This document shows, in pieces, positions 520 through 61,861 of a stretch of 64,000 nt of DNA. The stretch lies in IMG/VR virus record IMGVR_UViG_2935656913_000002; one strand, written 5' to 3'. The notes beneath the pieces were generated by a model. That model worked only from the letters and a program-made list of their open reading frames with translations. It was not told the DNA's origin and searched no databases. Within the stretch, counting starts at the first letter, position 1. Each line of letters opens with the position of its first letter. This DNA is from a virus. Made by a program: the position numbers and the translations under genes.

Positions 520-876
520 TCAGCGCTTTTTGAGGCGGATGACGCGCCTATTTCGGAGACTTACAGTCGGCAGTTCGGGGGCCTGAGTTGCAGGGGCCTG
601 CACGGGAGAAATCCAGCTTAGCCCGACCAGCCGACAGAGCCGTTCGTGGTTGATCAGCGCGGCCTCGTAGTTATGGGCACGATATTCGCGGCCGCCATGT
701 TCGCCGCCGAATACCATGCTCTCGAACTGGCCGGTAATGTGGAGGAAGATGGTGCTTACGGAAGCGGGCTGGCCTTGAGTCGCCATGATCCGCCTCGATA
801 TAGGACGCTCGATTGCATCGAACATCAGTTCGGTTATCTCAACGCGGCAGAGCGTATCGTCAAGGACGAACGGCAT
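520..876 (-). CDS. Hypothetical protein
   Basis: ORF with likely start MPFVLDD; carries a palindrome copy (VQAPAT) and a basic C-terminal tail. Confidence 0.55.
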   Translation of the reverse strand: MPFVLDDTLCRVEITELMFDAIERPISRRIMATQGQPASVSTIFLHITGQFESMVFGGEHGGREYRAHNYEAALINHERLCRLVGLSWISPVQAPATQAPELPTVSLRNRRVIRLKKR

Positions 877-1024
877 CGAAGAACATCTGAGAGTATTGCC
901 ATGCCGCGAGGGCGAGGCCGCAGGCAATAAGGAACCAGAATAGAACCGGTGCCATATCGCCGCCCTTCTTGACCGTAGTCGGGGGTGGCGGCGGGGGAAC
1001 GATCTTGTGAGGGTTGCGTCTCAT
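860..1024 (-). CDS. Small membrane protein (54 aa)
   Basis: Hand-translated MRRNPHKIVPPPPPP...VLFWFLIACGLALAAW; its start overlaps the upstream stop (ATGA). Confidence 0.45.
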   Translation of the reverse strand: MRRNPHKIVPPPPPPTTVKKGGDMAPVLFWFLIACGLALAAWQYSQMFFDAVRP

Positions 1025-1122
1025 GTCAGCGCCCAATCCGCGAACCTACGCAAAAGGCCCGTGTTGTTGAGCAACACGAGCGCGCCGATGATGGTCAGCG
1101 AAATGATGACGAGATATTTCAC
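1021..1122 (-). CDS. Small membrane peptide (33 aa)
   Basis: GTG start overlapping the upstream stop; MKYLVIISLTIIGALVLLNN is hydrophobic. Confidence 0.4.
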   Translation of the reverse strand: MKYLVIISLTIIGALVLLNNTGLLRRFADWALT

Positions 1123-1550
1123 TGTGCAGGTTCCTGCAAGAACGGGCTGCTCAGAACGAAGGCGGCCAGATCGATGTCCTGCTTTGGCTGCTCTGCGGTG
1201 GCGAACGAATGACCGCGCTTACGGAGGTCGTTCACGGCCATTACCTCGTATTCGACCGCAGCCTCATACGATGCGAAGTAAAGCGTCTCGCCGTTGTCCC
1301 AGCAGGCGATGCACCGATTGGAGTAGTACCCGGGCGCGCACTCGCGGGCATTGAAACCGACGAGCGGCCCGGTCTCGGAAAGCGGCCCCTGCAACCAGCG
1401 AACATAGAACGACCGGCCGTCGTCAGTTGGCAGCACCTCGGAAAGACGCTCGATCTGGCGATCACCGAAAACTCGGGTGTCGAAAACCTGATCCTTCAGG
1501 ATGGTTTCCAGCGACCCGTTCGGGTGGATTGTAACGACGATCTTGCCCAT
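1119..1550 (-). CDS. Hypothetical protein
   Basis: ORF starting MGKIVVTIHPNG and ending LQEPAQ (palindrome-encoded). Confidence 0.55.
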   Translation of the reverse strand: MGKIVVTIHPNGSLETILKDQVFDTRVFGDRQIERLSEVLPTDDGRSFYVRWLQGPLSETGPLVGFNARECAPGYYSNRCIACWDNGETLYFASYEAAVEYEVMAVNDLRKRGHSFATAEQPKQDIDLAAFVLSSPFLQEPAQ

Positions 1551-1640
1551 AGCGCGCTCCGTTGATTGTGTAATGGAGGATAGCCGCCGCAAGCAGGGCG
1601 GACAAGAAAAATGCGACGCCCTTGTCCGCCGAGCGCGGGC

Positions 1641-1931
1641 TCATGTCAGTGCGCCGCCCGGCCGCATGGCGGTCTTGATATCCTTGATCAGGTCGGCGCC
1701 GGTCTTGGAAGCATTATGCTCCCATTCCGGGTTCTGCCGGACGGACAAGCACGCTGCCGGAAGAGTACCCTTCCCATCCCAGCCGTTTGCGGACCAATAG
1801 TACCTGATGATCTCTGTCCGTTGCTTCGTGGCGGGGTCGTCAACGAAAAGGACCTCCTGAACGACCAAGGGCGGACTTCCGGAGTTGAGATACACGATGT
1901 CGCCGGGCTTGCGGTTTGACGGGCTGAGCAT
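1641..1931 (-). CDS. DUF2158/YodC-like small protein
   Basis: KPGDIVYLNSGSPPLVV matches the GDxVxLKSGGPxMTV pattern. Confidence 0.5.
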   Translation of the reverse strand: MLSPSNRKPGDIVYLNSGSPPLVVQEVLFVDDPATKQRTEIIRYYWSANGWDGKGTLPAACLSVRQNPEWEHNASKTGADLIKDIKTAMRPGGALT

Positions 1932-1953
1932 TTCTATTTTCCTTTGACGTGAG

Positions 1954-1993
1954 AAAACCCCCACGGCGGAAATCGGGGAAACCGCCGTGGGGG
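1954..1993 (-). terminator. Intrinsic terminator
   Basis: 12-bp stem CCCCCACGGCGG/CCGCCGTGGGGG followed by TTTTCTC on the minus strand. Confidence 0.6.
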
Positions 1994-2040
1994 CCTGTTA
2001 GGGGCGAGGCGTAGTTGGCCCTCCGTCTCGCCCCGATCTG

Positions 2041-2241
2041 TTACCAAGCCGCCGTTTGCGACTGGGAAGCGGACGAGCCGGACGCCTCATCGAATTCCGG
2101 CTTCAGGTGACGCGCGCCGGGATTGCCCGCCAAGGCGGCTTCGACGCTGGCCGTCATTTCGACGCACCGGCCGCCCGTCTCGCCTTCGACTTCGACCTTG
2201 CTGTCACCGAGCTTGTTGATGGTGACCACGATTTTCGGCAT
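2041..2241 (-). CDS. DUF2997-family protein
   Basis: IVVTINKLGDSKVEVEGETGGRCVEMTASVEAALAG pattern; sits next to DUF1257 and an AAA ATPase. Confidence 0.65.
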   Translation of the reverse strand: MPKIVVTINKLGDSKVEVEGETGGRCVEMTASVEAALAGNPGARHLKPEFDEASGSSASQSQTAAW

Positions 2242-2271
2242 TGAGATTACTCCGAGTGGGGGGTTGCGGGA

Positions 2272-4262: not shown

Positions 4263-4300
4263 AGAGGTAGCTTTCCTAGCTGTTGCAGGCGCCTGCAAGA

Positions 4301-6125: not shown

Positions 6126-6968
6126 TCAACGACGCCGAATGTTGATCTTCCTGCGCGACCCGAAGAAACCAACCGTTGCAGGTTCCTGCACGGGCGGCAC
6201 GATCATATTCTCGTCCGCAGTTATGATCGGGGTCTCTTGGTCATCGTCGAACACAGCCGTGAGAGAGTACGCGCCTGTCATGTTCTGGCTGCACTCGGTG
6301 ACCACATAGTAACCGTCCCGGGCTTCGCTTTGCCGTATGTTAAGGCGCGTCCCGGGTGAGATGGCACGTTCCATATTGAACGTGACGACATCGCGGGTCA
6401 TACGTCCCGTCACAGACTGCACAGTGTAGGTAGTATCCGGCAGCGGCTCTCCCGGCAGGAGCGGCCCACCCCCGAACAGCATGGCGCGATCAATGCTTTG
6501 CGACATTCTATTGCTAAGCTCATCGATGATCCCGGGCTCATCAAGGTATTGCCGCATCGCCTCGTTTAGATTGGTATCAACCCTGACACCCATGTCTCGC
6601 ATCATCATGGTGTGCGCCTCGACAGGATTATCTGGCAACCTGCGTCCCTGCACGGTGTAAGTCGGGAATGCTGGCACGTATCTGGGATTGGTGTGGCCAC
6701 GGGCGATCCAGTCAGGCAGCGCCAAACGAAATTCGCCATCGCCGTCTATATAAGTGATCGTGTGGGCCGCCTCGATAACCCGGAGGCAGCGCGCCTGCGA
6801 TCTCTCGGCTCCATCCAGCGCCCACGTAATGATGTTAGGCCATCGGCCTTGCTCGGTGACCAGCACAGTGCGGATGCGCTGCGATCCGCCCGGGAGGTTT
6901 TCAGTAGTCGTGAAGGTGACCCTGCCTTGCATAGGACTTTCCATATGGCTAGGGCGGAAACCGACCAC
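6126..6968 (-). CDS. Hypothetical protein
   Basis: 280-aa ORF downstream of a sigma70-like promoter; start uncertain. Confidence 0.5.
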   Translation of the reverse strand: MVGFRPSHMESPMQGRVTFTTTENLPGGSQRIRTVLVTEQGRWPNIITWALDGAERSQARCLRVIEAAHTITYIDGDGEFRLALPDWIARGHTNPRYVPAFPTYTVQGRRLPDNPVEAHTMMMRDMGVRVDTNLNEAMRQYLDEPGIIDELSNRMSQSIDRAMLFGGGPLLPGEPLPDTTYTVQSVTGRMTRDVVTFNMERAISPGTRLNIRQSEARDGYYVVTECSQNMTGAYSLTAVFDDDQETPIITADENMIVPPVQEPATVGFFGSRRKINIRRR

Positions 6969-7071: not shown

Positions 7072-7090
7072 GATCGTGCAGGGACCTGCA

Positions 7091-7141
7091 AATGAAAAGG
7101 GCGCGTCACGATGGAATGGGATTACCTCGTGACGCGCCCTT
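7091..7141 (-). terminator. Intrinsic terminator ending the structural/lysis operon
   Basis: Perfect 15-bp stem AAGGGCGCGTCACGA/TCGTGACGCGCCCTT followed by TTCATTT. Confidence 0.7.
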
Positions 7142-8760: not shown

Positions 8761-8789
8761 AACTTACGCCGATTTGCAGGTGCCTGCAA
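8761..8789 (-). promoter_or_regulatory. Possible promoter using a palindrome arm as -35
   Basis: TTGCAG-N17-TAAGTT, followed 7 nt later by CTCTCTC. Confidence 0.35.
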
Positions 8790-11237: not shown

Positions 11238-11321
11238 GTGAGACCCGGGGGGCTAGGAGTTGCAGGTGCCTGCAATAGTACTCTCGGCCCCCGGGCCATT
11301 CTATCCTCGCAGATTTTTCGC

Positions 11322-14409: not shown

Positions 14410-14441
14410 TGCGATTTCCTAAGTTGCAGGTGCCTGCAAGG

Positions 14442-16929: not shown

Positions 16930-16953
16930 TGGTTTGCAGGTGCCTGCAACGCG

Positions 16954-20500: not shown

Positions 20501-22089
20501 ACGGCTTGATTGTAAAAATCGTCGGGGTCATTCCACGTCACCGCGCAAACGGAATGCCGCGCGTTCAAGGGCACGCCAGTGTAGCTGAAGCTGCCGCCAA
20601 CCACGTTCGCACGGGTAACAACGCGACTAACCGGCCCGGGCGCATCCTGCGTGGTGGACACTTGCCCTGCCGCCCAGTAGATCATCCCTCGGAATACGCT
20701 CACCAGCGAATTCAGGACCGTGTAGGCTTGCTGCGCCGAAGTGATTTGCGTGTTGAACGTGAAGCGAGGTTCGGTGCCGCCCTTCCCATCCGGAACCATC
20801 ACGTCGCAATACTTCGCGATAATGTACAACGACGAGAAGTCGCACAGATCGTCGTCAATCCACTGCCCTGCCCCATAGCGTTCATGGGTTAGCAGATCGA
20901 GAAAACACCAGACTGGATTGTTCGTCCACGAGAGTTTGAACGTGCCGTCCCAAACACCGGTATAGGTGCGCGCGTTCGCGTCGTAGTTGGACGGCACTCG
21001 AACGATCCGGCCGAACACATCGTAACCACGGGTAGGCAGTCCACTTCCGGAGAAGTATTGCGTGTCGATAGTGATCCCGTACACCGCCGTGTCGCTGTAC
21101 ATCAGGCGAGAGTCAATGATCTCCGTGTAGCCCGAGAACGTGATCTCGTCTTGCGTGTAAGTCGCGCTTGTCGCATTGCCTGTGAAGTCGGTGGCGTCGG
21201 CAGTCAGACGCAGCACTCGAATTTGCCATGGCCCGCCACTCTTCGGGATTTCCATCCGGTATGCTTCTTCATACCCAGACGTGGTTTTGCCGCTGATGGT
21301 GATCGTTGCGTTGCTGTTGTGGTACAGCAACTGGCTCTGCGCCGCCCCGAATGCGTTGCCGAGAGTTTCCGTGATCATAACGTCGTACTGCGTCATAGGC
21401 AGTTCAAGGACGCTAAGGACCGGATATAGCCATTGTGCCGGGCCAGAATTGCCCCCTGAGAACGTGGCGCCCAATATCCAAGTTGACGTGCCATAGGGGC
21501 GGTAGAACAGTTGAAGATTGTACTGGCCGTTTGCAGGCGCCAGCACCGATCCGCGCCACTTGATACCGGTCGTCGCGGCCGGGGTCGGGTTGCTATAGTA
21601 CGGAACGAACGCACTTTCGAAATAGCCAGTGCGCCAACTGCCGGAACCCGTGCTGGTGTACTGGATCGCAAAGCTTACGCTTGTCTCATAGACGTTGCCC
21701 TTGGCGTCCCCGCGCTCGAACTGTCCAAGACGGATTTTGATCCGCACAGCATCGCACGTGTTGTTCTGTAGCGATTGAACAACGGGACCAACCGCTTGTT
21801 TAACGACCACGCCAACCTGATACTCTGACTCTACGTCAGTGATGCCCGAGAGCGGGTCCTGTATCGGGTAGCCAAGGCGTTGCTCAAGGACTAGCCCGAG
21901 CGCGTTCTGCGTGCCGCTGGGGCCTACGGCGGGAACCTTGTCCAGATAGAACGAACGGAGCCCGTTGACGAGACCGCCAATCGGACCTTCCGACACCACG
22001 TCCACAAGACGAGCAACCGTCTTGGACCGCAACGTATTTGCGGCTACGTATGCTGACGGTTCCGGATCAGACCCACCGAACTTGCCCAT
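17506..22089 (-). CDS. Central tail fibre / host-specificity protein (lambda gpJ-like)
   Basis: DVVSEGPIGGL, WTNNPVWCFLDLLT..RYG, EPRFTFN, AVEVVED, GCTSRGQA.R.GRW.L; FN3-like domains; C-terminal carbohydrate-binding-like domain. Confidence 0.9.
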   Translation of the reverse strand: MGKFGGSDPEPSAYVAANTLRSKTVARLVDVVSEGPIGGLVNGLRSFYLDKVPAVGPSGTQNALGLVLEQRLGYPIQDPLSGITDVESEYQVGVVVKQAVGPVVQSLQNNTCDAVRIKIRLGQFERGDAKGNVYETSVSFAIQYTSTGSGSWRTGYFESAFVPYYSNPTPAATTGIKWRGSVLAPANGQYNLQLFYRPYGTSTWILGATFSGGNSGPAQWLYPVLSVLELPMTQYDVMITETLGNAFGAAQSQLLYHNSNATITISGKTTSGYEEAYRMEIPKSGGPWQIRVLRLTADATDFTGNATSATYTQDEITFSGYTEIIDSRLMYSDTAVYGITIDTQYFSGSGLPTRGYDVFGRIVRVPSNYDANARTYTGVWDGTFKLSWTNNPVWCFLDLLTHERYGAGQWIDDDLCDFSSLYIIAKYCDVMVPDGKGGTEPRFTFNTQITSAQQAYTVLNSLVSVFRGMIYWAAGQVSTTQDAPGPVSRVVTRANVVGGSFSYTGVPLNARHSVCAVTWNDPDDFYNQAVEVVEDPELKARFGYIVTSVQAFGCTSRGQAIRTGRWILDTEKYATDVVTYRAGWDHAEARPGEIIAVSDPAYAGLRQGGRVISATVNSITMDAPYTFSKLETYTMSVVIPTWGRVSCINNGSNVTVIGDRTSFLNAIKPLHVGDVFVFENDATQYTVASVADNEHLTFTAPYAGATRSGANYSVFRGGVLLMSSLIVVIDVEIQASIDGAFVTVPLAANLPMVPNNGVPFVITGTDIAPRLFRIIGNKEVGPDTFEISALEYDPTKYARVETGYQAKTTKKLIDNSTPLDAIETIACKETIYKANNQLRTRLTISWTPLRDGRVTYYQLVYSYNGGPYQLLAGTSDTTYDMVDEVPGDYIFGVRPISSVTASGPFVYKNYTALGKNAPPADVSDFVAIRTVNGTQLNWTAVDDLDVVGYEIREGLSWDSGAIITTEMNGTTEFILLNDTLQHTFFIKALDDTSHYSVNASSVVTAVAAPANVSNFFAVQDNDRVQFNWDKVEGQDIRYEIREGETFAVGRRVALVSGNTANAMYPLEGDRIFWIKALSSVGLYSISASFSEVSLTVVQNRNLVYTSDRAALGWPGANFGVQPGGFGNTELLLQAGAITGSQTFQIILGYAAPIRARIWFDYTFTSDALTPQWGAATFTWGDPQADVAWQPLLDTGAAHVDWYISVNKAGYGPSVIEAWPFDTTLTGDAAGTLPTQGKWVTGQGVPAIGTYVTGTEPSYDITVTNTFTVQLSCVWTASEVYQSPTSYGGVGGSGNRAGTCTVTTTFAVTGATSLLVDGSTSGGLVLTAGQTSGNIVFDFGVGASNFIDEFVWKQDTTAIEGTWTFEGSNDNATYTAIQTAIPLGGALTTTITITPLTKARFRYFRLRMTGGSTSAAPHITEVEFKISNALAATYLDKVLLLAKVTGAGKFMRLLYIRDHTTPRVLLTDGNPGNDLSIDIAGDGQHRCTFAVVQDTSSRSLYMYDWDSTIASQVSNSAPSAGSYNSLAA

Positions 22090-25160: not shown

Positions 25161-25188
25161 GTTGGTTGTCCCGTGCAGGTGCCTGCAA

Positions 25189-34173: not shown

Positions 34174-34812
34174 TTATGACGTTCCAATCAACGCGGCGCG
34201 GAAGGGCACTAGCATCCCCTGTACTTCTGATAGAAGCCCTGTAGCTGCCGAAACAGTGAACTTAGACAGGCTTTGGCGGGCCTTCTCTTGCTGTTCCTCG
34301 CCCATCTGCACGGAGCGAATGCGGCGCAACAGGAATGCTGCCTGCATGCCAGTCGCCCGCGCAATGGTTGCAGGTACCTGCACGATGGGCGGCGAGGAGT
34401 TGTCGGGATCGTATCCCGCCGTCGCCACGATCTTTAGACCTCGCTTATGATATTCCATCCACGGGTTGAGGATGGTCACCATGCCGGTCTCATAGTCGAT
34501 GGAATAGTCGGTATCGAGCACCAACGGCGTGAGGTTGGATGAGACGAGGTGCGCGCCGGTCGCGTCATAGGTGATCACAACTGATCCCGTGACGACGGGC
34601 CACTCCGGCAGACGGGTGGTGAATACCCCTGCCCGTGTCATGACGTAGCTCGTCACAACCCGCTTGTCGAACTTGCGCCGGCAGAAGTTGCGCACAAGAT
34701 CAGAGGCAATCCCGATCTGTTCCGCGAGCGGCGCATCAAGCCCGGTAAAGCCCGAACTAATTGGCGTCATACCGCGAGCGGTGGCGGGGCTGCACAAAAC
34801 GCTATCGACCAT
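34174..34812 (-). CDS. Head-tail adaptor protein
   Basis: ASDLVRNFCRRKF, DYSIDYETG.V, ATAGY; follows the capsid genes. Confidence 0.7.
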   Translation of the reverse strand: MVDSVLCSPATARGMTPISSGFTGLDAPLAEQIGIASDLVRNFCRRKFDKRVVTSYVMTRAGVFTTRLPEWPVVTGSVVITYDATGAHLVSSNLTPLVLDTDYSIDYETGMVTILNPWMEYHKRGLKIVATAGYDPDNSSPPIVQVPATIARATGMQAAFLLRRIRSVQMGEEQQEKARQSLSKFTVSAATGLLSEVQGMLVPFRAALIGTS

Positions 34813-40648: not shown

Positions 40649-41023
40649 TCACTTCCGGTTACGCAGCGGGTTGGAGCCCATACGAAAAGCCCATAACGGG
40701 CAGACAACGTCCGAACACATGCGAGCACCTTTGGCGCCGCCCGCACAAAGAACGCAGAATGCGCGAATGCCCGTGGCCTTGCTGCGGATGCGGTTGCGGT
40801 AGGACTGCTCCATGTTGTCGCCTTTGTTCTGGGCGTTCCGCAACATGAGCACAAGATCGTCGGTTGGTACCGATGTGGGGTCCGCGCCAGCGTGAGCAAG
40901 ATAGCTGCACACTCGCAAGCCCGGCTTGTCGATCCCAGTAAGCACCGCGTCCGGACTTGGGATGTAGACCTTGGGCGTTTCAGTTGCAGGTGCCTGCAAT
41001 TCGCCGCGCTTCTTAATCGGCAT
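40649..41023 (-). CDS. Cys4 (putative zinc-binding) protein, paralog B
   Basis: IRAFCVLCAGG...RMCSDVVCPLWAFRMGSNP. Confidence 0.65.
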   Translation of the reverse strand: MPIKKRGELQAPATETPKVYIPSPDAVLTGIDKPGLRVCSYLAHAGADPTSVPTDDLVLMLRNAQNKGDNMEQSYRNRIRSKATGIRAFCVLCAGGAKGARMCSDVVCPLWAFRMGSNPLRNRK

Positions 41024-42648: not shown

Positions 42649-44775
42649 TTAGCGACGGTTAGTTGCCCGTCGGAACACCGACTTGCGCAGCGTGATATGT
42701 CGCGCAGTCTCGACCGATTTTGCAGGTTCCTGCACCGCTTCGCCATCCTTGGGCTTGGCGTCCGAACCGACGTTGATCTTGTTGAGGATCGGGCTCCACG
42801 CCACGCGGCGCTTCAGGAGGAACGATGTCACGCCGCAAACAGCGTCGGCAACGTCCTTAGTGCCATTGGATCGGTGATCGACCTTGTCCGGCTTGGTGCC
42901 CTGACTACGGACATACTCAAGACCGGCAAGCTCGTTCGCCAAGAACTGGAGCCGGGGCAGATACATCGCCCTGTCGTACATCGAGTCACGCAATGACCGG
43001 TAAGGATCGATCTGCTCGACCGAGAGGTAGTCCGCCTTGAAGCCCTTCGTCCGCAAAATCTGGCGGCTGTCCACCGACTGGAAGCCATCGAAGGTCACGT
43101 ACTCGATGGGCAACCCGAACTGGTCCCGCATCATGATCAGGAATTCACGGATGTGAGCGAACTCGATTTCACCATTCGGCGGTGGAATGCAACGCAAGAT
43201 GCAGTCAAAGCCCACAATCGGCTTCAATTCGCTGATCTTGAGCTTGGTAACGGGGTCAAACCGCTCAATGAGTTTCTGCCCGGCAATGTGGCCGATGGCG
43301 ATGCCGCAGGCGTCACGCGTGAGACCCATGTCGATATGGGCTGTGCGGAAAATCTTCAGATTGGTCTTGAGCAGTTCTCGCTTCGGCTTGGGGATGCCAA
43401 AATGGAAATCATATTGCTCATATTCGAACGGATTGACGTAGCCGTTCTCTGCCCCGTCGTTCATGCAGTCGTGGATGGAACTACGGCGGTTGATGAAAGG
43501 ACGAGAAGCAAGGATGGTGCGGCCAGCGTAGTCTCGCAGCGACCCGTCCAAGTCCCGCTCAAAGTCCACCCGAAAATCTTCTGGCACCTCGATAACGTCG
43601 CAGTCCGCAACGGTCGGTTCGTCCGCCGAGAGTATCTTGGATCGCACCATACTGTTGCCGACCATGACGCGGAACGTTTCGGGCAGGAACTGGTCCCTCC
43701 CCTTCACGTCCCAGATCGCCTTGGACATAACAAAGATGTTCGGGTCTGTGCCGCCCTGCATAGCGCTTTCGGCCGCCTTCGTTTCCGTGAAATCATCAGG
43801 GAAGCGAGACGACGAGATCAGGAACAGGAGGCCCGGCAGCTTGCCCTTCTTGGCGAAACGCGAGCGGCGACGGCGAGAGATGGCTTCGTAAATCGATTTT
43901 GCCTGACTAAACGAACCGTCGAGCCCCGCGTTCTGCGACTTCGATTTGAGCACCTTCTGCATGAAATTCATTTCGTCCAGAACGCCGCCGAGGATGTTCA
44001 TGGAGATAGCGCCGGTCGAGGATGACGACACTGGCAGCACGCGCAGCTTGTGTTCCGGAAAGATCATTTCGGTGGTGATCAGCTTGTTGTACGGGAAGAT
44101 GTATTTGAAGTACGGGCTCTGCTTGATCAGGCCGCCGAGTTCGTCAAAGACCGCTTTCTTGGCGGTCGCAAGTCGGATCGACTGAATAGAGAAAGCGATA
44201 CTGGCTCCCGACCGGATGCCGAACGTGGACTGCGGATGGCGCATGCAAGACAGCTTGTGGATGCCACGCACCATCATGATGTTCGACATGGTGGTCTTGC
44301 CGTAGCCGAGCGCGCCCTTGAGCACCGCTTCGACGTACTTGTCAGTATCGAGTTCAAGCATGGCCTCCAGGACACCCGGGAAGATTTCATCCCGTTTGAG
44401 TCCAAGATAGAAATTGCCGAAAATGAATTCCTCAAGATCGACGACCTTACGCCGGAACTCGGTCATTTCGATCAGAGCTTCGATGTTGCCGCTTTCGCGA
44501 AAAGTATCGACGCCGTCGAGCCAGAGATCGCGGGTCTCGTCGTCATCGAGTTGGTGCGCCTCCTCAATGATCTGATTGAGAATGAGCTGCGTCCGCTCGT
44601 CTAGACTCTTGTTAAAGTCGGCCGGAGATGCATGCTCAACCGGGCGCTTAAGATTGATCTTGCGGATATGCACGGCCGGTGCAGGCACCTGCAAGGTGAC
44701 CGCCTTGGGCAGGATGAGCCGGGGCTTCGGCAGGATACGGAAGCCGCTTTCCTTAACGATGGTGATCCCGACCAT
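42649..44775 (-). CDS. terL: Terminase large subunit
   Basis: Walker A GALGYGKT, Walker B VLDEMNF, RNase H-like nuclease HIDMG..RD, TFDGFQS, KDVADA. Confidence 0.92.
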   Translation of the reverse strand: MVGITIVKESGFRILPKPRLILPKAVTLQVPAPAVHIRKINLKRPVEHASPADFNKSLDERTQLILNQIIEEAHQLDDDETRDLWLDGVDTFRESGNIEALIEMTEFRRKVVDLEEFIFGNFYLGLKRDEIFPGVLEAMLELDTDKYVEAVLKGALGYGKTTMSNIMMVRGIHKLSCMRHPQSTFGIRSGASIAFSIQSIRLATAKKAVFDELGGLIKQSPYFKYIFPYNKLITTEMIFPEHKLRVLPVSSSSTGAISMNILGGVLDEMNFMQKVLKSKSQNAGLDGSFSQAKSIYEAISRRRRSRFAKKGKLPGLLFLISSSRFPDDFTETKAAESAMQGGTDPNIFVMSKAIWDVKGRDQFLPETFRVMVGNSMVRSKILSADEPTVADCDVIEVPEDFRVDFERDLDGSLRDYAGRTILASRPFINRRSSIHDCMNDGAENGYVNPFEYEQYDFHFGIPKPKRELLKTNLKIFRTAHIDMGLTRDACGIAIGHIAGQKLIERFDPVTKLKISELKPIVGFDCILRCIPPPNGEIEFAHIREFLIMMRDQFGLPIEYVTFDGFQSVDSRQILRTKGFKADYLSVEQIDPYRSLRDSMYDRAMYLPRLQFLANELAGLEYVRSQGTKPDKVDHRSNGTKDVADAVCGVTSFLLKRRVAWSPILNKINVGSDAKPKDGEAVQEPAKSVETARHITLRKSVFRRATNRR

Positions 44776-45392
44776 TAGCCCTTGGCTTCCACAACCTGTT
44801 TGACCATATTGTGCATGCGGTCGCGACTGGCCTGATCTTTCTTGACCCGGTTAAGGTCTTCCATGACCCCCGCCTCTTCCGCCGCTGCGACCGGCCGTCC
44901 GCCCTCGTTGATCCGGCCCCGCAACTTGCCAATCGTCTCGATGAGCTTCGTCGTGGCCTCAACGTCCTTAACCGTCGTCTGGAACAGCTTGCCCAAGTTC
45001 TTTTCGAGACCGACTTCGATCCCGAGACGGAGTTGCTGTATCTTCAGCAATTGCATCGCCGCCTGAAGCTCGTCAGGCATCGGCTGGTTCGGCTCGACTA
45101 ACCCGTCAAGGCCCTCCGCTTCGGCTTCCGCAATTGCTTCCGGATGCACCTTTCGGAAAGCACGGATGGCCTCCGCGAACGTACGCTCGTTAACATCGAT
45201 CCAGCCCTCGCGCGCCCAATGCGCCGCGACCTGCGCTGGCCCGACACCCGACTTGAGCGACGCGATCAGCAACTTGAACTTGGGATTGTTCGTGACAAGG
45301 CGCAGGAAGTACTTTTCCTGCGCCACTTTCTGACTTACGAGGCCCGGCCCGGTGAGGTTACGGGGTGGCAGTTTACGGACGGTGAGTGCCAT
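44775..45392 (-). CDS. Putative terminase small subunit
   Basis: Helical 205-aa protein translationally coupled to terL; called on position only. Confidence 0.55.
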   Translation of the reverse strand: MALTVRKLPPRNLTGPGLVSQKVAQEKYFLRLVTNNPKFKLLIASLKSGVGPAQVAAHWAREGWIDVNERTFAEAIRAFRKVHPEAIAEAEAEGLDGLVEPNQPMPDELQAAMQLLKIQQLRLGIEVGLEKNLGKLFQTTVKDVEATTKLIETIGKLRGRINEGGRPVAAAEEAGVMEDLNRVKKDQASRDRMHNMVKQVVEAKG

Positions 45393-45396: not shown

Positions 45397-46242
45397 CTAC
45401 TTCTTGGCTAGACGTGTTTCTCTGCGTTGAGCAACTTTATCCGATTTCTTGACCTTGCTCAAATCCGCGGTAGCGACGATCTGCTTCATGACATCCGCCA
45501 TGAGGAGCCCCTGCGATTTTACCCGCTCCTCAAGAGCTTCCATCATCTTGTTGAGTTGGTTGTCCGACTCAACGTAGTGATGCTTCTTGCCGCCGTAACT
45601 GAAAACAACAAACCCGTGATCCAGATCGGAGCCGTGCTCCTTGAAGATCGTGTGGATCACGGAGGACAACCCGTCCACGCTGGTGATGGTTTCTCGCGCC
45701 TCCTCCAGCTTTTTCTTTTGTGCCGGGTTGAGCGTCTTTTCGATGTTCTTATAGACCCGCTTGAACGCTTCGTCCTTCGTGAAACCCATTTGGAGCTTCA
45801 GGATCGAGGGGTCGTACTTTTTGGAAAGCTCGTTGTACAGTTGCGTGAACCTTTCCGGATTGAGGTTGCCGCGCATCTGGTTATCGCGGACTAGCGCGAA
45901 CTTCCGCTCGTCTTCGGTCCAGCCTTCTCGAACGACGCAAGGCACGTGAGTAAATTTGAGGACTTTCGCCGCCTTGAGGCGATGGTGGCCCGAGTACACA
46001 ATGTACTTGCCGGGCTCTTTGAGAGAAGGGATGACTTTGATTGGTTCGTCAAATCCCTTGTCCTTGATGACTTGGACGAGTTGATCGAACGTTTGCTCGT
46101 CTTGCTCATTCGGGTTTTCCTTGGACTCCAAAACGTCCTCAATCGGAATATCAAACACCTCAACGATGGTGCTCCGCTTAAGGACGGGCCTTGCTGCCAC
46201 GGTCGGGCGCTGGGCGGACAACTTCTTGATCGCGAGGGCCAT
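45397..46242 (-). CDS. ParB/Srx N-terminal-domain protein
   Basis: NPNEQD...F..L...I...GFDEPI.V, YSGHHRL.AAK.L, DNQMRG. Confidence 0.85.
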   Translation of the reverse strand: MALAIKKLSAQRPTVAARPVLKRSTIVEVFDIPIEDVLESKENPNEQDEQTFDQLVQVIKDKGFDEPIKVIPSLKEPGKYIVYSGHHRLKAAKVLKFTHVPCVVREGWTEDERKFALVRDNQMRGNLNPERFTQLYNELSKKYDPSILKLQMGFTKDEAFKRVYKNIEKTLNPAQKKKLEEARETITSVDGLSSVIHTIFKEHGSDLDHGFVVFSYGGKKHHYVESDNQLNKMMEALEERVKSQGLLMADVMKQIVATADLSKVKKSDKVAQRRETRLAKK

Positions 46243-46244: not shown

Positions 46245-47864
46245 TTACTTTGCCTTCTTAAGGATGACGGGACGTTTCTTAGTTGCAGGTCCCTGCAATT
46301 CGATTTTCTCGTCGGCGGTGAGAGGGATTGCCGGTATAGCCGCCGTATCAGGCATGATAGCACTATCGAATACATCGCGGCGAACAAAGGTATCAAGAGG
46401 ACCATCACAAGGGTCCACGAAACCGGCCAGCCCCATAGTGTGGTGAATGGCTCCGCGAGCGTAGGTAAAGGTTGTTCTGATCCCCATATCCCCAATGCTG
46501 ACCCCCATGTGCCCGGCCTTCTGAAGATAGGCAACCACGTCTGCGAACGTGTACTTTTTGCCCTTGAGTTCTTGGCAGAACCGGATGACCGCGCCGGAGG
46601 TCTTGAACCGGTTGATATGCCCCCTCGCCTGCACTTCGATCTCATCCGCGAGCGCGCTGATGCTCTTTTTGGCGTTGTACTTCTCGCGGATGGTATCCCG
46701 CCATGGCAGGATCATATCGCGAGCCTCTTGCTTGTTCTCCCTGATCCACATGAGGGTCGCTAGTAGAGCCGCCTTGTCCTTCGGCTCAATGACAAAAGGG
46801 TAATCCTTGAAGAAGGATTGCTGATAGTCAGAGACCGGAATAACACCGGGAAGCCCCATGTAAAGAGCCTCAAACAGTCCGGTAGGATGATCAAGATGAG
46901 ACATAGGGCAAATAAAAGCATGGTAACCCCTCAGTTGCCGGATAAAGTTTGCCCGATTGTTATTTTCGAGGATGCGGAACTGTTTCCCAAGGTTAGCAAA
47001 ATCAAATCCAATCTTGCTAAGTTTGCTGCGCATCGGTCCCCCAAGCGCACCAGAGAGGGAGATGGTGAGACGTACGTCTTCCATCCCCGACTTGAACAGG
47101 TAATCAAACCAAGGAAGGTACTCAATATAACTAACGCCAAAAATGCGACCGATACTAACAACGTTAAAACCACTCTCGTATTTCCAGCGGTCGGGGTCGT
47201 AGAGGGGATCGAGTTGGTCGCACTCGATACCTGCCGGGATAATTTTCGATTGCTTGTGCGCGAATTCATTGACCCGGCTCGTTACAAAGATTTCCGCCAT
47301 TTCCTTAGTGACTTCCGCCCGATTGTGGTCGGAGAGGAAGACGGTCGAGTCAGAGGCAAGGTACCCAAGGCACTGGGAAAGCCAGTACGCCTCGCCGGAA
47401 TTCTGTCGCTGCTGCGTCTGCGGGAATTCTTCGATAAGAACAACGGGCATTCCATAGCCCTTGTCAGTGTAATTGCCACCATTGTCGTGGAACCGTGGCG
47501 GCTCCAAGATACGTTTGTAATGGGCGGCGAGAGAGTTCCGCGAGGTACATAGCACGTCAACGTGATACTTGCCCGCAACTCGATTGAACAGATTAAAAAA
47601 CTCGTCCGTAACCAGCCCATCCACCACGAACTGATCTTGAATAGCAGTGGTACGGATGATCCCGACATGAGGGTGGTTCTCGATTTCGTCGGGGGTGTAC
47701 TTGGCTTCGTCAGGTACCATCCAGTAGACATAGTGACCTCGCTTAACGAGTTCGCGGACAAGCGTCACGTACTTGCGGTAGGTGCTGGACCCTGAGAGAT
47801 TGCTGATTTGAACGTAGACAGGGTCGATCAATATCCGCAAACGCGGCCTATAGACTTCGGGCAC
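46245..47864 (-). CDS. GT-B (GT4-like) glycosyltransferase
   Basis: LV.RGH.V, IIPAGI, SIGRI, AFICP......PTGLFEALYMGLPGV (EAxxxGxPV motif). Confidence 0.75.
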   Translation of the reverse strand: MPEVYRPRLRILIDPVYVQISNLSGSSTYRKYVTLVRELVKRGHYVYWMVPDEAKYTPDEIENHPHVGIIRTTAIQDQFVVDGLVTDEFFNLFNRVAGKYHVDVLCTSRNSLAAHYKRILEPPRFHDNGGNYTDKGYGMPVVLIEEFPQTQQRQNSGEAYWLSQCLGYLASDSTVFLSDHNRAEVTKEMAEIFVTSRVNEFAHKQSKIIPAGIECDQLDPLYDPDRWKYESGFNVVSIGRIFGVSYIEYLPWFDYLFKSGMEDVRLTISLSGALGGPMRSKLSKIGFDFANLGKQFRILENNNRANFIRQLRGYHAFICPMSHLDHPTGLFEALYMGLPGVIPVSDYQQSFFKDYPFVIEPKDKAALLATLMWIRENKQEARDMILPWRDTIREKYNAKKSISALADEIEVQARGHINRFKTSGAVIRFCQELKGKKYTFADVVAYLQKAGHMGVSIGDMGIRTTFTYARGAIHHTMGLAGFVDPCDGPLDTFVRRDVFDSAIMPDTAAIPAIPLTADEKIELQGPATKKRPVILKKAK

Positions 47865-47968: not shown

Positions 47969-48355
47969 TTACACGCTACGATTGGACATGAAGTCATTGA
48001 GCTTGTGCTCCACCACGTCCTCAAGAAGCGCGAGATTTTCGCCCGCGAGTTCCTTCGCCAGCATGAGTAGATGCTTGCCCTCGGCGTCGCGGCCGATCAC
48101 GTCGCCCGGGATGATAACGAAGCCATCGACCTTGAGACCGACGCCGATATCGCCGCCCTTCTCGGTGATCACGACGTTGGGCCAGAACGCCGAGCGCTTC
48201 GCCTCATCGAGCGTCAGCCGCTTGCGGCGCGGGGTGGCGAGTACTTCCCCGTTTTCGTCGGGAGTTGCAGGGGCCTGCAATTCGAGCTTCGCCACATCCG
48301 CTGACGTGACGGTTTCCGAGATCGAGAGAGATTTATCGGCCATAATCGGCTCCAC
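47969..48355 (-). CDS. Hypothetical protein
   Basis: 128-aa ORF with normal codon use. Confidence 0.6.
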   Translation of the reverse strand: MEPIMADKSLSISETVTSADVAKLELQAPATPDENGEVLATPRRKRLTLDEAKRSAFWPNVVITEKGGDIGVGLKVDGFVIIPGDVIGRDAEGKHLLMLAKELAGENLALLEDVVEHKLNDFMSNRSV

Positions 48356-48382: not shown

Positions 48383-48757
48383 TTAGATCACTGGGCACAA
48401 GATGACGCGCTTCTTGAGCACCATGCAGCGCTGTAAGAGCGGGACCATGGCCGCGAACAGCCCGTCCCAGAACACGACGACCGCATCCGCTTCGTTGATG
48501 ATCGCGAGGTTGCGCGTATCGAACACCTGTTGCGCGGTGATCTTGACCCCGCTATCGCTCTGGTAGTTTGGGGGGATGGGAGTGAAGTCGATGCCGTTCT
48601 CCTTGGCGTACGCTTCCGCGAGTGCTTCGACACCCTTGCCGCCGCCCGCGATAATGCCCGTTAGATCGGGAATAGCCCCCAAGCAACCGGCCACATGTTG
48701 TTTGTTGGTGTACAACTGGAACCGCAACTCGCGAGGGCCGAACACTGCATAGCGCAT
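48383..48757 (-). CDS. SLOG-superfamily (YspA/DUF2493-like) protein
   Basis: AVFGPR, IIAGGGKGVEALAE.YA...GI, RN..I...D.VVVFWDG. Confidence 0.75.
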   Translation of the reverse strand: MRYAVFGPRELRFQLYTNKQHVAGCLGAIPDLTGIIAGGGKGVEALAEAYAKENGIDFTPIPPNYQSDSGVKITAQQVFDTRNLAIINEADAVVVFWDGLFAAMVPLLQRCMVLKKRVILCPVI

Positions 48758-49069
48758 TGATCTCAGTCCTATAGCGAAGCAACCTTAGCGCTATAGGACT
48801 TGATTTTGCAGGTTCTTGCAATCCTTGCAGATTTTTAGGCGATGACCACGCGATTAGCCGAACGTGACGGGCGCGGCGGCTTCTTATTCGGATGCGCTTT
48901 GATCTCTGTTGGTTCGCCATCCACTAGGCGGAAAGTCACAAGACTGCCTTTTTGGCACCCACCGTGATCCACGCGGACCCGTTGCCATTCGTTACGCGCT
49001 CGCCGTTGTGGTGCACGGCAATCGAACGAAAATATCTGTGGACCGCATTTTCGAGTTCGGTAGGCATCA

Positions 49070-49606
49070 CTAATCTCCATCGATGACAGAAAAATCACCG
49101 TCGATCACTGTCCCCTCGCCGTCCGAAGGAACGCCGCCCTTGAATTCCTTGTCGAACATTTGCCGCGTCTTGGCGGGCTCACTGGGCCGGGGTACCGCGA
49201 TATAGTGCCGGTGCACGTGCACGGGCTTAGGTTCGTCCTCAGTGGCGGTAGGCAGTTGGTTGATGACGCGGGAGATGGCCGAGTACTCGCCGTACGCGTT
49301 GACGTATACCGTAGTCTCGATCTCGACCTTGTCGCGGGCAAAACTCGTCTCGTTCTCGGTGACGGCCCGAACCATGCTGACCGTACGGTTGCCCTTTTGG
49401 GTCGGGACCGAGATAACCAGCCCCTCGCTCTTGAGCCGCTGCACTTGCGCGTTGACGCTCTGATATTCTTCCTTGAGGGAGTTCGCGATCTGGGTGATGG
49501 TCATGTCACCCTTCTCTTTAAGCTCCCGGAAAATGCGGCCTGAAAGCATCCCGATCTTGAGGAGCGGATGGCGGCCCTTGGTGACGCGGCGGTTCTGTAA
49601 ACTCAT
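49070..49606 (-). CDS. Winged helix-turn-helix protein
   Basis: MTITQIANSLKEEYQSVNAQVQRLKSEGLV. Confidence 0.7.
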   Translation of the reverse strand: MSLQNRRVTKGRHPLLKIGMLSGRIFRELKEKGDMTITQIANSLKEEYQSVNAQVQRLKSEGLVISVPTQKGNRTVSMVRAVTENETSFARDKVEIETTVYVNAYGEYSAISRVINQLPTATEDEPKPVHVHRHYIAVPRPSEPAKTRQMFDKEFKGGVPSDGEGTVIDGDFSVIDGD

Positions 49607-49852: not shown

Positions 49853-49870
49853 GTTGCAGGTCCCTGCAAA

Positions 49871-51149: not shown

Positions 51150-51175
51150 AGTTGCAGGCACCTGCAAGCAAAATT

Positions 51176-52566: not shown

Positions 52567-52616
52567 CTATTTTTGCCTTTGTTAGTTGCAGGTACCTGCA
52601 AAGTTTGAGAGATTGG

Positions 52617-54262: not shown

Positions 54263-54302
54263 CTTGGTAGTCCTCTCTTGTTGTTGCAGGTACCTGCAAG
54301 GT

Positions 54303-56706: not shown

Positions 56707-57114
56707 CTAACCCGCGCCGATAACGGTGATTGCCCGGGTTGCCGTTTGATTGACCGGCGCGGCAGAGGTGCCGCTACGCAGTTGCAGGTACCTGCACGCG
56801 ATGAAGTCCACGACCGGGATGGTGGTGAGCTTTCCGGCAACGGGCGTCACGGAATACTCGGTGCCGTCCGCCTTGTACATGTCGTACCACGTGGTACCGT
56901 CCGGCGACCACTGGAACGTGACAACGGCGGCGAGCCAAGCAGCGGGAACGATGATCCCGGCGAGCCGATAGCCCGCGCGGAAATCAAGAATGTCGGAGAT
57001 GCCGGTCGCGCCAGCGGGAATGTTGACGACCGCCGAACTGGGGGCGGACGCTCGCACAGCGATGCTTGCAACGTCGTCAGCGCCCGAGGCGAGCGCCATC
57101 TTGACAGTAGCCAT
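56707..57114 (-). CDS. Small beta-sandwich putative structural protein
   Basis: TFQWSPDG.TW motif; first gene after its promoter. Confidence 0.6.
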   Translation of the reverse strand: MATVKMALASGADDVASIAVRASAPSSAVVNIPAGATGISDILDFRAGYRLAGIIVPAAWLAAVVTFQWSPDGTTWYDMYKADGTEYSVTPVAGKLTTIPVVDFIACRYLQLRSGTSAAPVNQTATRAITVIGAG

Positions 57115-58856: not shown

Positions 58857-58929
58857 GATTTTGCAGGTTCCTGCACGGGTGTGCTGATTGCAGATTTTAA
58901 GTATACGAAATTTCGGTCATCGAGACAAG

Positions 58930-59807: not shown

Positions 59808-59871
59808 GAAAAAAGCCCTAGCTGATGAAGCTAGAGCTTACCACGTCGGGGACTTTGCTGGAACCGCTGCG

Positions 59872-60132
59872 CTACCTGAAGCGAAGCTCTCGGGCGAAGT
59901 CGTATTCACGGTCCACAAGCGCCTGTACGCAGTCCGGCACCTTGCCCCCGAGTACGCGCGTAGTGGCCGCCGTATCGGAGGCGCGCTGTGACAGCTTATA
60001 CCAATGATAGAGATCGTTGAATTTCATTGCCCGTATCTGGGCAAGGTTCGGCGGTGTCGCCTTGGGGTCGGTGCATTCCGCCCGCGCCCCTGTCGTAATA
60101 AGCAAAGCTACAAACAAAACAACGCAACGCAT
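59872..60132 (-). CDS. Small exported protein
   Basis: Signal-peptide-like N-terminus ending ARA. Confidence 0.45.
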   Translation of the reverse strand: MRCVVLFVALLITTGARAECTDPKATPPNLAQIRAMKFNDLYHWYKLSQRASDTAATTRVLGGKVPDCVQALVDREYDFARELRFR

Positions 60133-60135
60133 ACG

Positions 60136-60408
60136 CTACTCCACAGTCGGGGCCGGTGCTTCCTTGATGTCCTTGGCCGGTATGAACTTCGTCAGGTTCT
60201 TCTCGGCATAGATCGGGTCGATATACCAGAGTTCACCCGCGCAATGGGCTTCACGCTGGGCCGCCATGGTAGCCAGCGCTTGGTCCGTTCTTGTGGGATC
60301 GGTAGCCGTGATCTTGCCTATCGTGTCGGCCGTGAGACCGCGATGCACGCCGGAATGATCCAGCAAAATGAGCAGCATCTTAATTCGCTGCGGCGCCATT
60401 AAGGACAT
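60136..60408 (-). CDS. Hypothetical protein
   Basis: MSLMAPQ start with RBS. Confidence 0.5.
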   Translation of the reverse strand: MSLMAPQRIKMLLILLDHSGVHRGLTADTIGKITATDPTRTDQALATMAAQREAHCAGELWYIDPIYAEKNLTKFIPAKDIKEAPAPTVE

Positions 60409-60712
60409 TAAGACCCCTTCTCTCTTTCCAGCTATCGACGTACGGCACAAGCGCCTCCGGTTCGGCCGTCTCGAAATCCGCCTCACACATGCAGAGATCG
60501 AGCGCGACCTCGTACGAATGGTTATCCCGCAGGAATGCAAGATAGCCGCCGTCCTCCGCACGCGTTAGCGCATCGTGAACCAGCTTCTCGGTGTTGGCGT
60601 GCTCGGCAACAGTGACACTCACGGCGAACCCTCCGAAGGTTGTTCCATTCGAAAAAATGCGGGACCGCTTTTTACCGCGATCCGCGCCGAGGAACAACGC
60701 CGAAAATGAATT

Positions 60713-60967
60713 TTAGTTGCTACTTAGATTTGCAGGTCCCTGCAAGTCAGCGGGTAGCACGATGTTGTCGATGATGGGACGCTTGGAGTCAACGTAAACC
60801 TTAAGCTCCGAGAGAACGTCAAGCTGGTTGTTACCGGACATGAACAGTCCGTAGAACGCAACCGCTCCGGTGAAGTAGACATTCCGTAGTACTTCTTGAT
60901 CCTCAGTCGAAAGCTTATCGTAACCGTTAAGCCGTACAACTTCTTCCCAATGGGATTGAAGCGACAT
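60713..60967 (-). CDS. Hypothetical protein
   Basis: 84-aa ORF; palindrome copy at its C-terminus. Confidence 0.55.
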   Translation of the reverse strand: MSLQSHWEEVVRLNGYDKLSTEDQEVLRNVYFTGAVAFYGLFMSGNNQLDVLSELKVYVDSKRPIIDNIVLPADLQGPANLSSN

Positions 60968-61077
60968 CGGTGGTACTCCCGTTACACAACTATAAATTGA
61001 TCGTCAACCGATTTTTCCTGCGGTGGCAGCTTATCACGGATTTTTTGCAGTGCAAGAGAAATTGGTTGCATTTTAAC

Positions 61078-61311
61078 TTACTTCCTCCGGTTGTTGCGAG
61101 CCCCCCGACTCAATACCGGACTCATAGCACCGCCCAAAGTAAAGGACAAACCGTACTTCAAGAAAGAGTCGTAACCCTTCCCTGCCGTGTTCCATGCGGC
61201 GCGGCGACTTGCCGCAGCGATCTGGGGGCTAGCCCAGACCATTTCCAGTTTTTCCCGAAGGGTCGGTTCCCTTGTAAGTTTGGCGTCAGGGAACCGCTTT
61301 TTTATGGGCAT
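61078..61311 (-). CDS. Hypothetical protein
   Basis: MPIKKR start. Confidence 0.45.
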   Translation of the reverse strand: MPIKKRFPDAKLTREPTLREKLEMVWASPQIAAASRRAAWNTAGKGYDSFLKYGLSFTLGGAMSPVLSRGARNNRRK

Positions 61312-61535
61312 GGCACGTACCCGTTCCCGTCCCACACCTGAAGATCGTAGCGCTTTGCATGGGCCGATGACCGCAGGGCCGAGCGCATGGCGTCGTCGTC
61401 ACCGACGGCACCGATCATGATCCAACCGAACCGGCCCCTGCACCGGTAAGACCGCAGCCCGTGACCCGCGAGCGGACGATCATGCATAGGCAGGTGCGAG
61501 TAATCCCGCGCCGTATATCGTTTAAGAATGGGCAT
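61302..61535 (-). CDS. Hypothetical protein
   Basis: MPILKRY start; YRCRGRFGWIMIGA. Confidence 0.55.
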   Translation of the reverse strand: MPILKRYTARDYSHLPMHDRPLAGHGLRSYRCRGRFGWIMIGAVGDDDAMRSALRSSAHAKRYDLQVWDGNGYVPCP

Positions 61536-61861
61536 CGTCTTACTCGTTGGTTTATTCCGATAAACGAAGGTTTGCACGCGCCCTCTCCCGCTGCAAAGGT
61601 TAATGCGCTTCCTCCAACTGTAAGACCGTGTCCGCGAACGCGTAGAACCGTGCACAAGACGGGTCACTACGAACGTACTCCCACCGCGCCACAAGAGAAA
61701 TGTAGTTCGTCGGCGTAATCTCGATCTTGTTCGCTAGGCACCAAGTGCGCATCGCTATCTGTTGCCGAATATCCATGTCTTCTCCTGTTAGGCCGCGTCC
61801 GAAACCCAGTATACCCGCGACGCGCGATTTTGTAATACTAGGGCCGTGCAGGAACCTGCAA

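Follow-up and report, generated by a model that had tools for sequence, protein, structure and literature searches.

The stretch of DNA analysed here (the window) spans 64,000 nucleotides of a virus, and is the minus strand of bases 7770–71769 in the 101,364-bp IMG/VR record IMGVR_UViG_2935656913_000002 (hereafter G000), labelled 'provirus'. Nearly all G000 genes lie on one strand. Ahead of the terminase stands a conserved block of genes encoding, in order, a winged-helix protein, a SLOG/YAcAr protein, a glycosyltransferase, a ParB-like protein, a putative small terminase (TerS), and the large terminase (TerL). One 16-base palindrome, KTGCAGGNNCCTGCAM, recurs about every 2 kb along the whole chromosome, too evenly for chance.

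An evenly spaced palindrome array

A pattern scan of the window finds 31 exact matches to KTGCAGGNNCCTGCAM (588...61846), compared with none in 100 dinucleotide shuffles, and exactly three copies with one mismatch over the 12 fixed bases. This bears out the count in the first-pass annotation, which was made from the sequence alone. Its gap figures are likewise reproduced: the mean gap between the 31 copies is 2042 bp (given there as about 2.04 kb); two of the 30 gaps fall below 1 kb (536 and 900 bp); and from 30466 to 61846 all 17 consecutive gaps lie within 1116–2803 bp.

The full record contains 49 exact copies, from base 3681 to base 99858. The coefficient of variation (CV) of their gaps is 0.47, as against 0.98 ± 0.13 under random placement, and not one of 20,000 random draws was equally regular. 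The smallest gap is 444 bp; the random median is 29 bp. It had been suggested at the outset that a preference for intergenic positions might account for the regularity. However, when as many sites as observed are drawn at random from gene ends, the CV is 1.00, with a minimum of 0.65. Because this null stays irregular, the spacing itself is selected, with the proteins paying for the array. Seven one-mismatch copies occur in the full record (0.17 expected), preferentially in the largest gaps, and adding them lowers the CV to 0.44. Beyond one mismatch, copies are no more frequent than chance predicts.

Each site is a perfect dyad: 7-bp invariant arms flank a free 2-bp centre. On the coding strand the central dinucleotide is NA in 26 cases versus TN in six. 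Codon choice can explain this bias (GNA encodes E, A, G, or V, whereas GTN encodes V only), and avoidance of GTG or AGGTG may add to it. The site is therefore treated as symmetric.

Placement relative to genes

About half of the copies lie in short gaps between genes, and 47% are no more than 60 nt from a stop codon, versus 18% at random. The initial division into 14 intergenic and 17 genic copies is roughly right: crude gene calls leave 11 clearly intergenic, and correcting over-extended starts adds four or five. Almost all genic copies share one reading phase, encoding (L/V)QxPA, and lie in Pro/Ala-rich linkers or within a few dozen codons of either end of the protein. Copies deep inside a gene occur only in the two giant tail genes and a handful more, which are responsible for the largest gaps. 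Genic copies in this benign phase reflect selection on DNA at a cost to proteins. Together with even spacing in several independent genomes (below), these observations support the earlier view that the sites act at the DNA level, are under selection, and disregard module boundaries.

Two other associations were considered and set aside. Only one or two sites per genome follow a terminator-like hairpin. A hairpin or processing site in RNA is unlikely, given copies inside open reading frames (ORFs), such as that at TerL codon 28, and stems in which the sequence is conserved rather than the pairing. In the early region (7060–7130 and 61800–61862, coding strand), copies ending ...CCTGCAC stand 4–10 nt upstream of good σ70-like promoters. 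These few promoter-adjacent copies may double as ordinary operators.

Table 1. Palindrome copies and terminase-proximal genes in the window (window coordinates).
Feature	Position	Strand	Context
Exact copy	588..603		Small gene, phase 0, VQAPAT
Exact copy	1124..1139		Gene 1119-1550, 5 codons ahead of stop, LQEPAQ
Exact copy	4283..4298		Intergenic; stop 2 nt before, next start 20 nt after
Exact copy	6176..6191		Junction upstream of AAA-ATPase gene (4301-6172); tail of upstream ORF, VQEPAT
Exact copy	7076..7091		Intergenic; σ70-like promoter TTGACT-17-TAGTAT (coding strand) 4 nt downstream
Exact copy	8774..8789		Intergenic; immediately past stop codon
Exact copy	11260..11275		22 nt upstream of start of gene 10359-11237
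Exact copy	14424..14439		Intergenic, tail-fibre region; 2 nt past stop, 14 nt ahead of start
Exact copy	16934..16949		Intergenic; 4 nt past stop, 4 nt ahead of start
Exact copy	18191..18206		Codon ~1295, deep in 1527-aa tail gene; sole clear internal copy in another phase
Exact copy	22856..22871		1 nt ahead of likely ATG start
Exact copy	25173..25188		Intergenic; abuts stop of 1467-aa gene, 12 nt ahead of next start
Exact copy	26346..26361		Within 1467-aa (tape-measure-like) gene, codon ~1078, VQAPAN
Exact copy	30466..30481		Intergenic; 3 nt past stop
Exact copy	32874..32889		Pro/Ala-rich stretch, VQEPAT
Exact copy	34368..34383		Within gene 34174-34812, VQVPAT
Exact copy	36683..36698		Within gene 36336-37574, Pro/Ala-rich linker, VQEPAT
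Exact copy	38181..38196		Last 6 codons of portal gene; overlaps protease gene start
Exact copy	40984..40999		~8 codons past likely start of HNH-endonuclease gene
Exact copy	42720..42735		28 codons ahead of TerL stop, VQEPAK
Exact copy	44679..44694		TerL codon 28, LQVPAP; relative G001 has variant TGCA-N6-TGCA at same position
Exact copy	46283..46298		Glycosyltransferase gene, 16 codons ahead of stop, LQGPAT
Exact copy	48265..48280		Small ORF between SLOG and glycosyltransferase genes
Exact copy	49854..49869		Intergenic; terminator-like hairpin precedes, start 1 nt after
Exact copy	51152..51167		Intergenic; immediately past intrinsic-terminator-like hairpin
Exact copy	52586..52601		Intergenic; 15 nt past stop, 19 nt ahead of start
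Exact copy	54284..54299		21 nt upstream of likely start with ribosome-binding site
Exact copy	56782..56797		5' end of 739-aa gene
Exact copy	58861..58876		Intergenic, 4 nt ahead of start; copy and flanks identical in G001
Exact copy	60730..60745		Last 10 codons of small gene
Exact copy	61846..61861		Immediately past stop; 10 nt upstream of σ70-like promoter TTACAA-17-TATACT
One-mismatch copy	21532..21545		Splits 4665-bp gap caused by 1527-aa gene
One-mismatch copy	48807..48820		
One-mismatch copy	63571..63584		
TerL, large terminase (708 aa)	42649..44775	-	Query for finding relatives
Putative TerS, small terminase (205 aa)	44775..45392	-	By position only
ParB/KorB/Noc-fold protein (281 aa)	45397..46242	-	Best candidate reader; Pfam ParB_N E 1.2e-8; phrog_26387 E 7e-59
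GT4-like glycosyltransferase (539 aa)	46245..47864	-	Always directly upstream of ParB-like gene
SLOG/YAcAr ('DprA-like') protein (124 aa)	48383..48757	-	
Winged-helix protein (178 aa)	49070..49606	-	Weaker candidate reader

The array in related phages

The array is a real, strongly selected, family-wide feature: eleven related genomes carry 15–68 copies each, at mean spacings of 1.5–3.1 kb. Scanning the full record and its relatives had been proposed as a check on the motif; the full record bears it, and relatives carry it or a palindrome of their own. A megablast search of the window against cultured phages gave no match, and a pattern scan of IMG/VR for the window motif found one other contig with many copies, G001. 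This 94.5-kb contig is syntenic with G000 at 40–80% protein identity and carries 42 copies, in which the centre is always AA or TT (CV 0.53). The positions of 24 of its 31 mappable sites are orthologous to those of G000 sites, at about 60% protein identity.

Such positional stability bears on the idea that the palindromes are recombination linkers, or a self-spreading element of the repetitive extragenic palindromic (REP) or miniature inverted-repeat transposable element type, marking module boundaries and having no whole-genome reader. Many sites do stand at gene junctions and where DNA similarity between G000 and G001 ends, and two deletions between the repeats of Cluster O mycobacteriophages have been described by Cresawn et al. 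(PMC4351075). Nevertheless, site positions are stable between the two genomes, only the 16 bp are conserved and not the flanks, and no transposase of the REP-associated type was found. Even spacing and copies inside long genes would also be unexpected for linkers, making this explanation very unlikely.

Searches with TerL and the glycosyltransferase located about 30 further loci, almost all of which carry a palindrome of their own at about the G000 density. The variants are TTGCAGGTACCTGCAA in L066 (8 copies in 18 kb); KTGCAG-CCGT-CTGCAM in G408 (62 copies, CV 0.54); TTGCA-N-ACGT-N-TGCAA in G002 (17 copies, CV 0.47); TGCA-NNCGNN-TGCA in G003 (15 copies, CV 0.44); GCAAACGTTTGC in L072, L078, L079, and the metagenome-assembled genome (MAG) G007, which has 45 copies; CAATCGATTG in many loci including G409 (34 copies, CV 0.67); and ATAAC-N2/3-GTTAT in G005, L073, and L074 (37 copies in G005, CV 0.70). 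Cultured phages with motifs of their own include Rhodobacter phage RcDurkin (40 copies) and Agrobacterium phage JP1 (33 copies). The Stenotrophomonas phage DLP5 is more distant, with just 34% TerL identity; it carries TGCAAT-CA/TG-ATTGCA 31 times, with a CV of 0.49 that none of 20,000 random draws equalled in regularity. Each genome carries its own motif only. Spacing is regular in G000, G001, JP1, RcDurkin, G005, G408, G409, and DLP5 (CV 0.47–0.70), and a junction-aware null, applied to five of these eight, gives P values from <0.0002 to 0.011.

A core, TGCA-N6-TGCA, is common to all motif classes but ATAAC, and is present in 13–68 copies compared with 0.2–2.5 expected; the 31 DLP5 copies belong to its TGCAA-N4-TTGCA subset. 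The inner bases around the core are lineage-specific. The exceptional ATAAC class is represented by the 90-kb genome G005 (IMGVR_UViG_3300001605_000015), in which 25 copies have a 3-bp spacer and 12 a 2-bp spacer. This sub-lineage is nested in the CAATCGATTG clade and has switched motif.

One lineage (G004/G006 and L070) has no array, and the glycosyltransferase tree places it within the array-bearing clade. Its member G006 (IMGVR_UViG_3300043446_004967) has nine TGCA-N6-TGCA sites, versus 0.8 expected, all within 10 kb (50.4–60.5 kb). Eight GCAA-N4-TTGC units fall within 500 bp at 55.19–55.66 kb. The G006 cluster has the look of an operator, iteron, or tandem-promoter region in which this half-site is the building unit.

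Hosts and lifestyle

The array is not a host element, judging by sampled bacteria, in which the motif is rare; a motif equally common in the host would, according to the first-pass annotation, have spoken against a phage function. The glycosyltransferase family occurs in one of 185,579 bacterial and archaeal species genomes, the MAG G007, where two phage-like contigs bear all 45 GCAAACGTTTGC copies and the remaining ~2.1 Mb bears none. These contigs (C44 and C87, together ~95 kb) constitute a phage of the same family, and are probably mis-binned in the bacterial MAG, which is labelled Rickettsiales (JALZUV01). In 401 genomes of the class of G007, which may not be the class of the host, the 12-base core of the window motif occurs 0–3 times per genome, the same as a reversed control. 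The high chromosomal copy number typical of REP elements and bacterial interspersed mosaic elements was found neither in the 401 genomes nor in G007 outside its phage contigs. The window sequence itself occurs in soil metagenomes from several studies.

These counts make it highly improbable that the sites serve a host protein, whether a LacI-, CRP-, or FNR-type regulator or a nucleoid protein, that the phage recruits or titrates. The motifs GCAAACGTTTGC and TGCAATCGATTGCA of relatives do match a generic LacI/PurR-type operator with central CG, and the phages encode no LacI-type helix-turn-helix (HTH). However, the window motif has no fixed central CG, and one core is shared across phages of Rhodobacter, Agrobacterium, and Stenotrophomonas while close relatives differ in the inner bases. 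A LacI-type reader of phage origin was also rejected: PF00356 is absent from G000, G001, G005, and G006, and the centre of the window motif is free (NN).

At the start of the record, outside the window, is a tyrosine integrase gene (G000:C1:1-1074; L124:1-1074, minus; PF00589, E 4e-16), on the opposite strand to the other genes. This fits the 'provirus' label. Among cultured relatives, DLP5 is temperate and is reported to persist as a phagemid (PMC5834331), and RcF phages show no sign of lysogeny (PMC8601537).

Candidate readers

The best candidate reader is the ParB-like protein, one of several DNA-binding candidates listed in the first-pass annotation. It has a genuine ParB/Noc/KorB fold: its Pfam ParB_N match lies above the curated cutoff, and Foldseek matches the predicted model to ParB–CDP, Noc, and KorB, its top hits (probability 1.0), and to ParB–parS (E ~1e-8, 180–240 columns), spanning the NTPase domain and the following helical domain. 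The motifs SGHHRxKAA (of the GxxRxxA or box II type) and RNxLRG (box III type) are conserved in 15 orthologues. The protein is present in every genome that carries the TGCA-N6-TGCA core, and, conversely, the core is enriched in every genome with the protein except G005, where the motif has switched, and Arthrobacter phage KellEzio. In the ATAAC lineage, ParB positions that are invariant in the sister class show fixed changes, including R to H in RNxLRG. Only 16 G000 proteins are detectable in DLP5, and the ParB-like protein is the sole one with a sequence-specific DNA-binding fold. Conservation of the core to the depth of DLP5 argues for a conserved reader, which favours this protein.

Several observations weigh against such a role. 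KellEzio has the ParB-like gene and the adjacent glycosyltransferase but no array, and the array-less lineage G006/L070 retains the gene; the protein is thus not sufficient for an array. Among phages with an identical CAATCGATTG site its putative HTH helix (residues ~157–170) is variable, as one would seldom expect of a helix that reads bases. A rigid dimer on B-DNA would not readily accommodate the spacer of G005, which is 2 bp in some copies and 3 bp in others. The annotations of RcDurkin, JP1, and DLP5 revealed no ParA-type partner, although no dedicated search was made. Phage ParB-N proteins encoded beside terminases are often thought to be nucleases or DNA-modification helpers. Moreover, the choice of the ParB-like protein is by elimination among sequence-detectable proteins, and would fail if the true reader evolves beyond detection by BLAST or hidden Markov models.

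Other candidates from the same list fared worse. A second 'ParB-N' protein (57789–58589) and a ribbon-helix-helix protein (3888–4262) have homologues only in the closest relative, G001, and a basic protein (62970–63689) has only partial matches, in G001, G005, and G002. Confined to near relatives, these three cannot read a core shared with DLP5. TerS is an unlikely reader, as cultured relatives package from one pac-type start (PMC8601537).

The winged-helix protein was rejected as reader in its turn: its recognition helix differs among phages of one motif class, and it was not detected in DLP5. It, or a fast-evolving repressor, is the presumed agent in a rather unlikely alternative, in which the sites are stoperator-like operators or roadblocks that stop RNA polymerase within ~2 kb, silencing the prophage or timing late genes. 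Cluster A stoperators indeed occur about once per 2 kb. The one-strand gene arrangement would suit roadblocks, as would the proximity to gene ends (38–64% of sites within 60 nt, versus 18% at random) and the few early-region copies beside σ70-like promoters or just past terminators. All close relatives have the winged-helix gene in synteny, the recognition helix of its product has changed most in the class whose inner motif is the most diverged, and the core sites of the array-less lineage cluster like ordinary operators. Against these points, the sites, being symmetric, lack the asymmetry and orientation of stoperators; most lie away from promoters; and those inside long genes are not needed by the model itself. 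Lifestyle divides the same way: the integrase at the record start and the temperate DLP5 (PMC5834331) are in keeping with prophage silencing, but RcF phages are without sign of lysogeny (PMC8601537).

Elsewhere in the block, the GT4-like glycosyltransferase surpasses every other protein of the family in conservation, with 80% identity to G001 and 54–77% to other close relatives, above TerL, portal, and capsid. The glycosyltransferase–ParB–TerS–TerL block reaches Arthrobacter phages, and in Delepquintavirus (DLP5) sugar-synthesis genes precede it. The high-confidence model of the SLOG protein is a generic SLOG fold, resembling DprA, YpsA, and LOG; in G005 the protein alters an otherwise invariant FWDG motif. 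Between the terminase and portal genes, an HNH homing-type endonuclease gene (40159–41160, minus strand; phrog_374, E 5e-54) has its closest G001 copy at a different genomic position.

Wherever the flank is long enough, array-bearing close relatives all have the SLOG gene, which the single array-less lineage lacks. DLP5, however, has no SLOG homologue yet carries 31 sites, and the joint loss of gene and array is a single evolutionary event, so SLOG was rejected as a factor required for the array. Among the DNA-binding candidates first listed, co-occurrence with the motif, a test proposed at the outset, singles out the ParB-like gene, present in all core-bearing phages.

The block also bears on an improbable alternative, that the sites are enzyme targets for nicking, base modification or glycosylation, recombination initiation, or lagging-strand priming at Okazaki-fragment distances. 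The 12 fixed bases are conserved all-or-none, as in restriction- or modification-type recognition. ParB-like proteins assist DNA modification in dpd and dnd systems, and here the block persists in phages as far apart as those of Arthrobacter and Stenotrophomonas, and is preceded in DLP5 by sugar-synthesis genes. The variable G005 centre would suit a hairpin or cruciform substrate; relatives encode RecA-like, Cas4-like, and RuvC-like proteins, a primase, and a gp32-like single-stranded DNA-binding protein; and the SLOG gene and array were lost together once. But the array of DLP5 exists without SLOG, the glycosyltransferase and ParB-like genes persist in array-less phages, and the mean spacing differs among relatives (1.6–3.1 kb), leaving no fixed ruler. 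Known primases, for their part, need only 3-nt signals.

Comparison with known systems

The closest case in print is the 17-bp dyad repeat TGTTCGG-NNN-CCGAACA of Cluster O mycobacteriophages, Corndog and its relatives (Cresawn et al. 2015, PMC4351075). Both arrays consist of more than 30 copies, on average about one every 2 kb, with invariant 7-bp inverted arms and a variable 2–3-bp centre; both mix intergenic, 5'-proximal, and internal positions, include a few one-mismatch copies, and are absent from the host (for the present array, from sampled bacteria); and both kinds of phage have genes for glycosyltransferases and for a protein with a ParB-like domain. The Cluster O authors concluded that a dimeric protein binds the repeats for some purpose other than promoter control (PMC4351075). 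The likeness is nevertheless one of kind and not of homology, for phage, host phylum, and sequence are unrelated. The only shared protein is an AAA-ATPase (Corndog gp96 and window 4301–6172, 32% identity over 337 aa), which is also found in the array-less G006. By our computation the Corndog sites are not evenly spaced: their CV of 1.07 is the same as random, and they are crowded in the right arm. The array described here is even, spans a much deeper clade, and has a motif that drifts by lineage.

No later papers explaining the Cluster O repeats were found in a literature search, and nothing was found on these motifs or on evenly spaced phage palindromes beyond Cluster O. The RcF-cluster and DLP3 genome papers do not contain the word stem 'palindrom'. 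Nobody has reported the even palindrome array in these phages.

Among ParB-family systems, KorB–OB (RK2, 12 operators), Noc and its binding sites, and ParB–parS share the fold with a GxxRxxA-type motif and 13–16-bp palindromes, and the KorB and Noc sites, like those here, are scattered through the replicon instead of clustering. The gene in these phages differs in adjoining a glycosyltransferase and a terminase; no ParA or KorA partner was noticed in the relatives' annotations, in which no dedicated search was made. To our knowledge, no KorB, Noc, or ParB system has been described with sites as dense (49, one per 2 kb) or as even.

The linear plasmid prophage N15 offers a phage parallel: its ParB-family protein SopB binds dispersed 16-bp palindromes with 7-bp arms and a 2-bp centre, at four sites. 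The present family has 30–70 sites instead of four, no SopA/ParA gene was noticed, and the record carries an integrase. Common to both are a temperate-phage ParB-family protein and scattered 16-bp palindromes, and the relative DLP5 is kept as a phagemid (PMC5834331).

Cluster A stoperators (L5, Bxb1) and φC31 inverted repeats are alike in presenting tens of near-identical sites at about 2-kb density, often in short intergenic gaps, with a motif that differs by sub-lineage. Unlike the transcription-oriented, asymmetric stoperators, the sites here are perfect dyads, about half of them in coding sequence, and no cognate repressor is linked to the motif.

A proposed loading-site lattice

Since the spacing itself is under selection, the underlying process is presumably short-range and needs to reach the whole chromosome. 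The sites very probably dock a dimeric phage protein whose action must extend over the entire genome. More tentatively, and with a little less than an even chance of being right, they form a loading lattice for the putative ParB/KorB/Noc-type clamp encoded at 45397–46242, the candidate reader chosen by elimination.

ParB, SopB, and Noc sites are 14–16-bp palindromes, and KorB acts from 12 dispersed sites on RK2. By analogy with ParB–parS, Noc and its binding sites, and KorB–OB, a ParB-like dimer would recognize each 16-bp site and then form a closed, nucleotide-dependent clamp able to slide or spread over a limited stretch. Selection would keep one high-affinity site within ~1–3 kb of every point on the chromosome, because the action of the protein is short-range and must cover the whole genome. 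An even 2-kb loading lattice would then yield a uniform genome coat. Such a coat might silence, compact, or mark the DNA, for example ahead of packaging or while the phage persists as a lysogen or phagemid; it could also protect the DNA or link it to glycosylation or packaging.

Since 2015 the literature has described dyad repeats scattered through phage genomes, without a reader or function. New here is statistical proof, from several independent genomes, that the spacing itself is selected, along with a natural series of motif variants and one array-loss lineage that can be used for finding the reader. Because cultured, tractable carriers exist (the Rhodobacter RcF cluster, Agrobacterium JP1, and Stenotrophomonas DLP5 and DLP3), the question of reader and function is directly testable.

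Possibly, though this is more doubtful, a clamp is loaded every ~2 kb with a spacing that evolved to match its sliding range, forming a 'chromatin' or self-marking layer in phages of Alpha- and Gammaproteobacteria that silences or protects the DNA or hands it to the glycosyltransferase and terminase machinery. If the ParB-like protein is indeed the reader, this would provide a function for the very common, unexplained ParB-like genes beside phage terminases.

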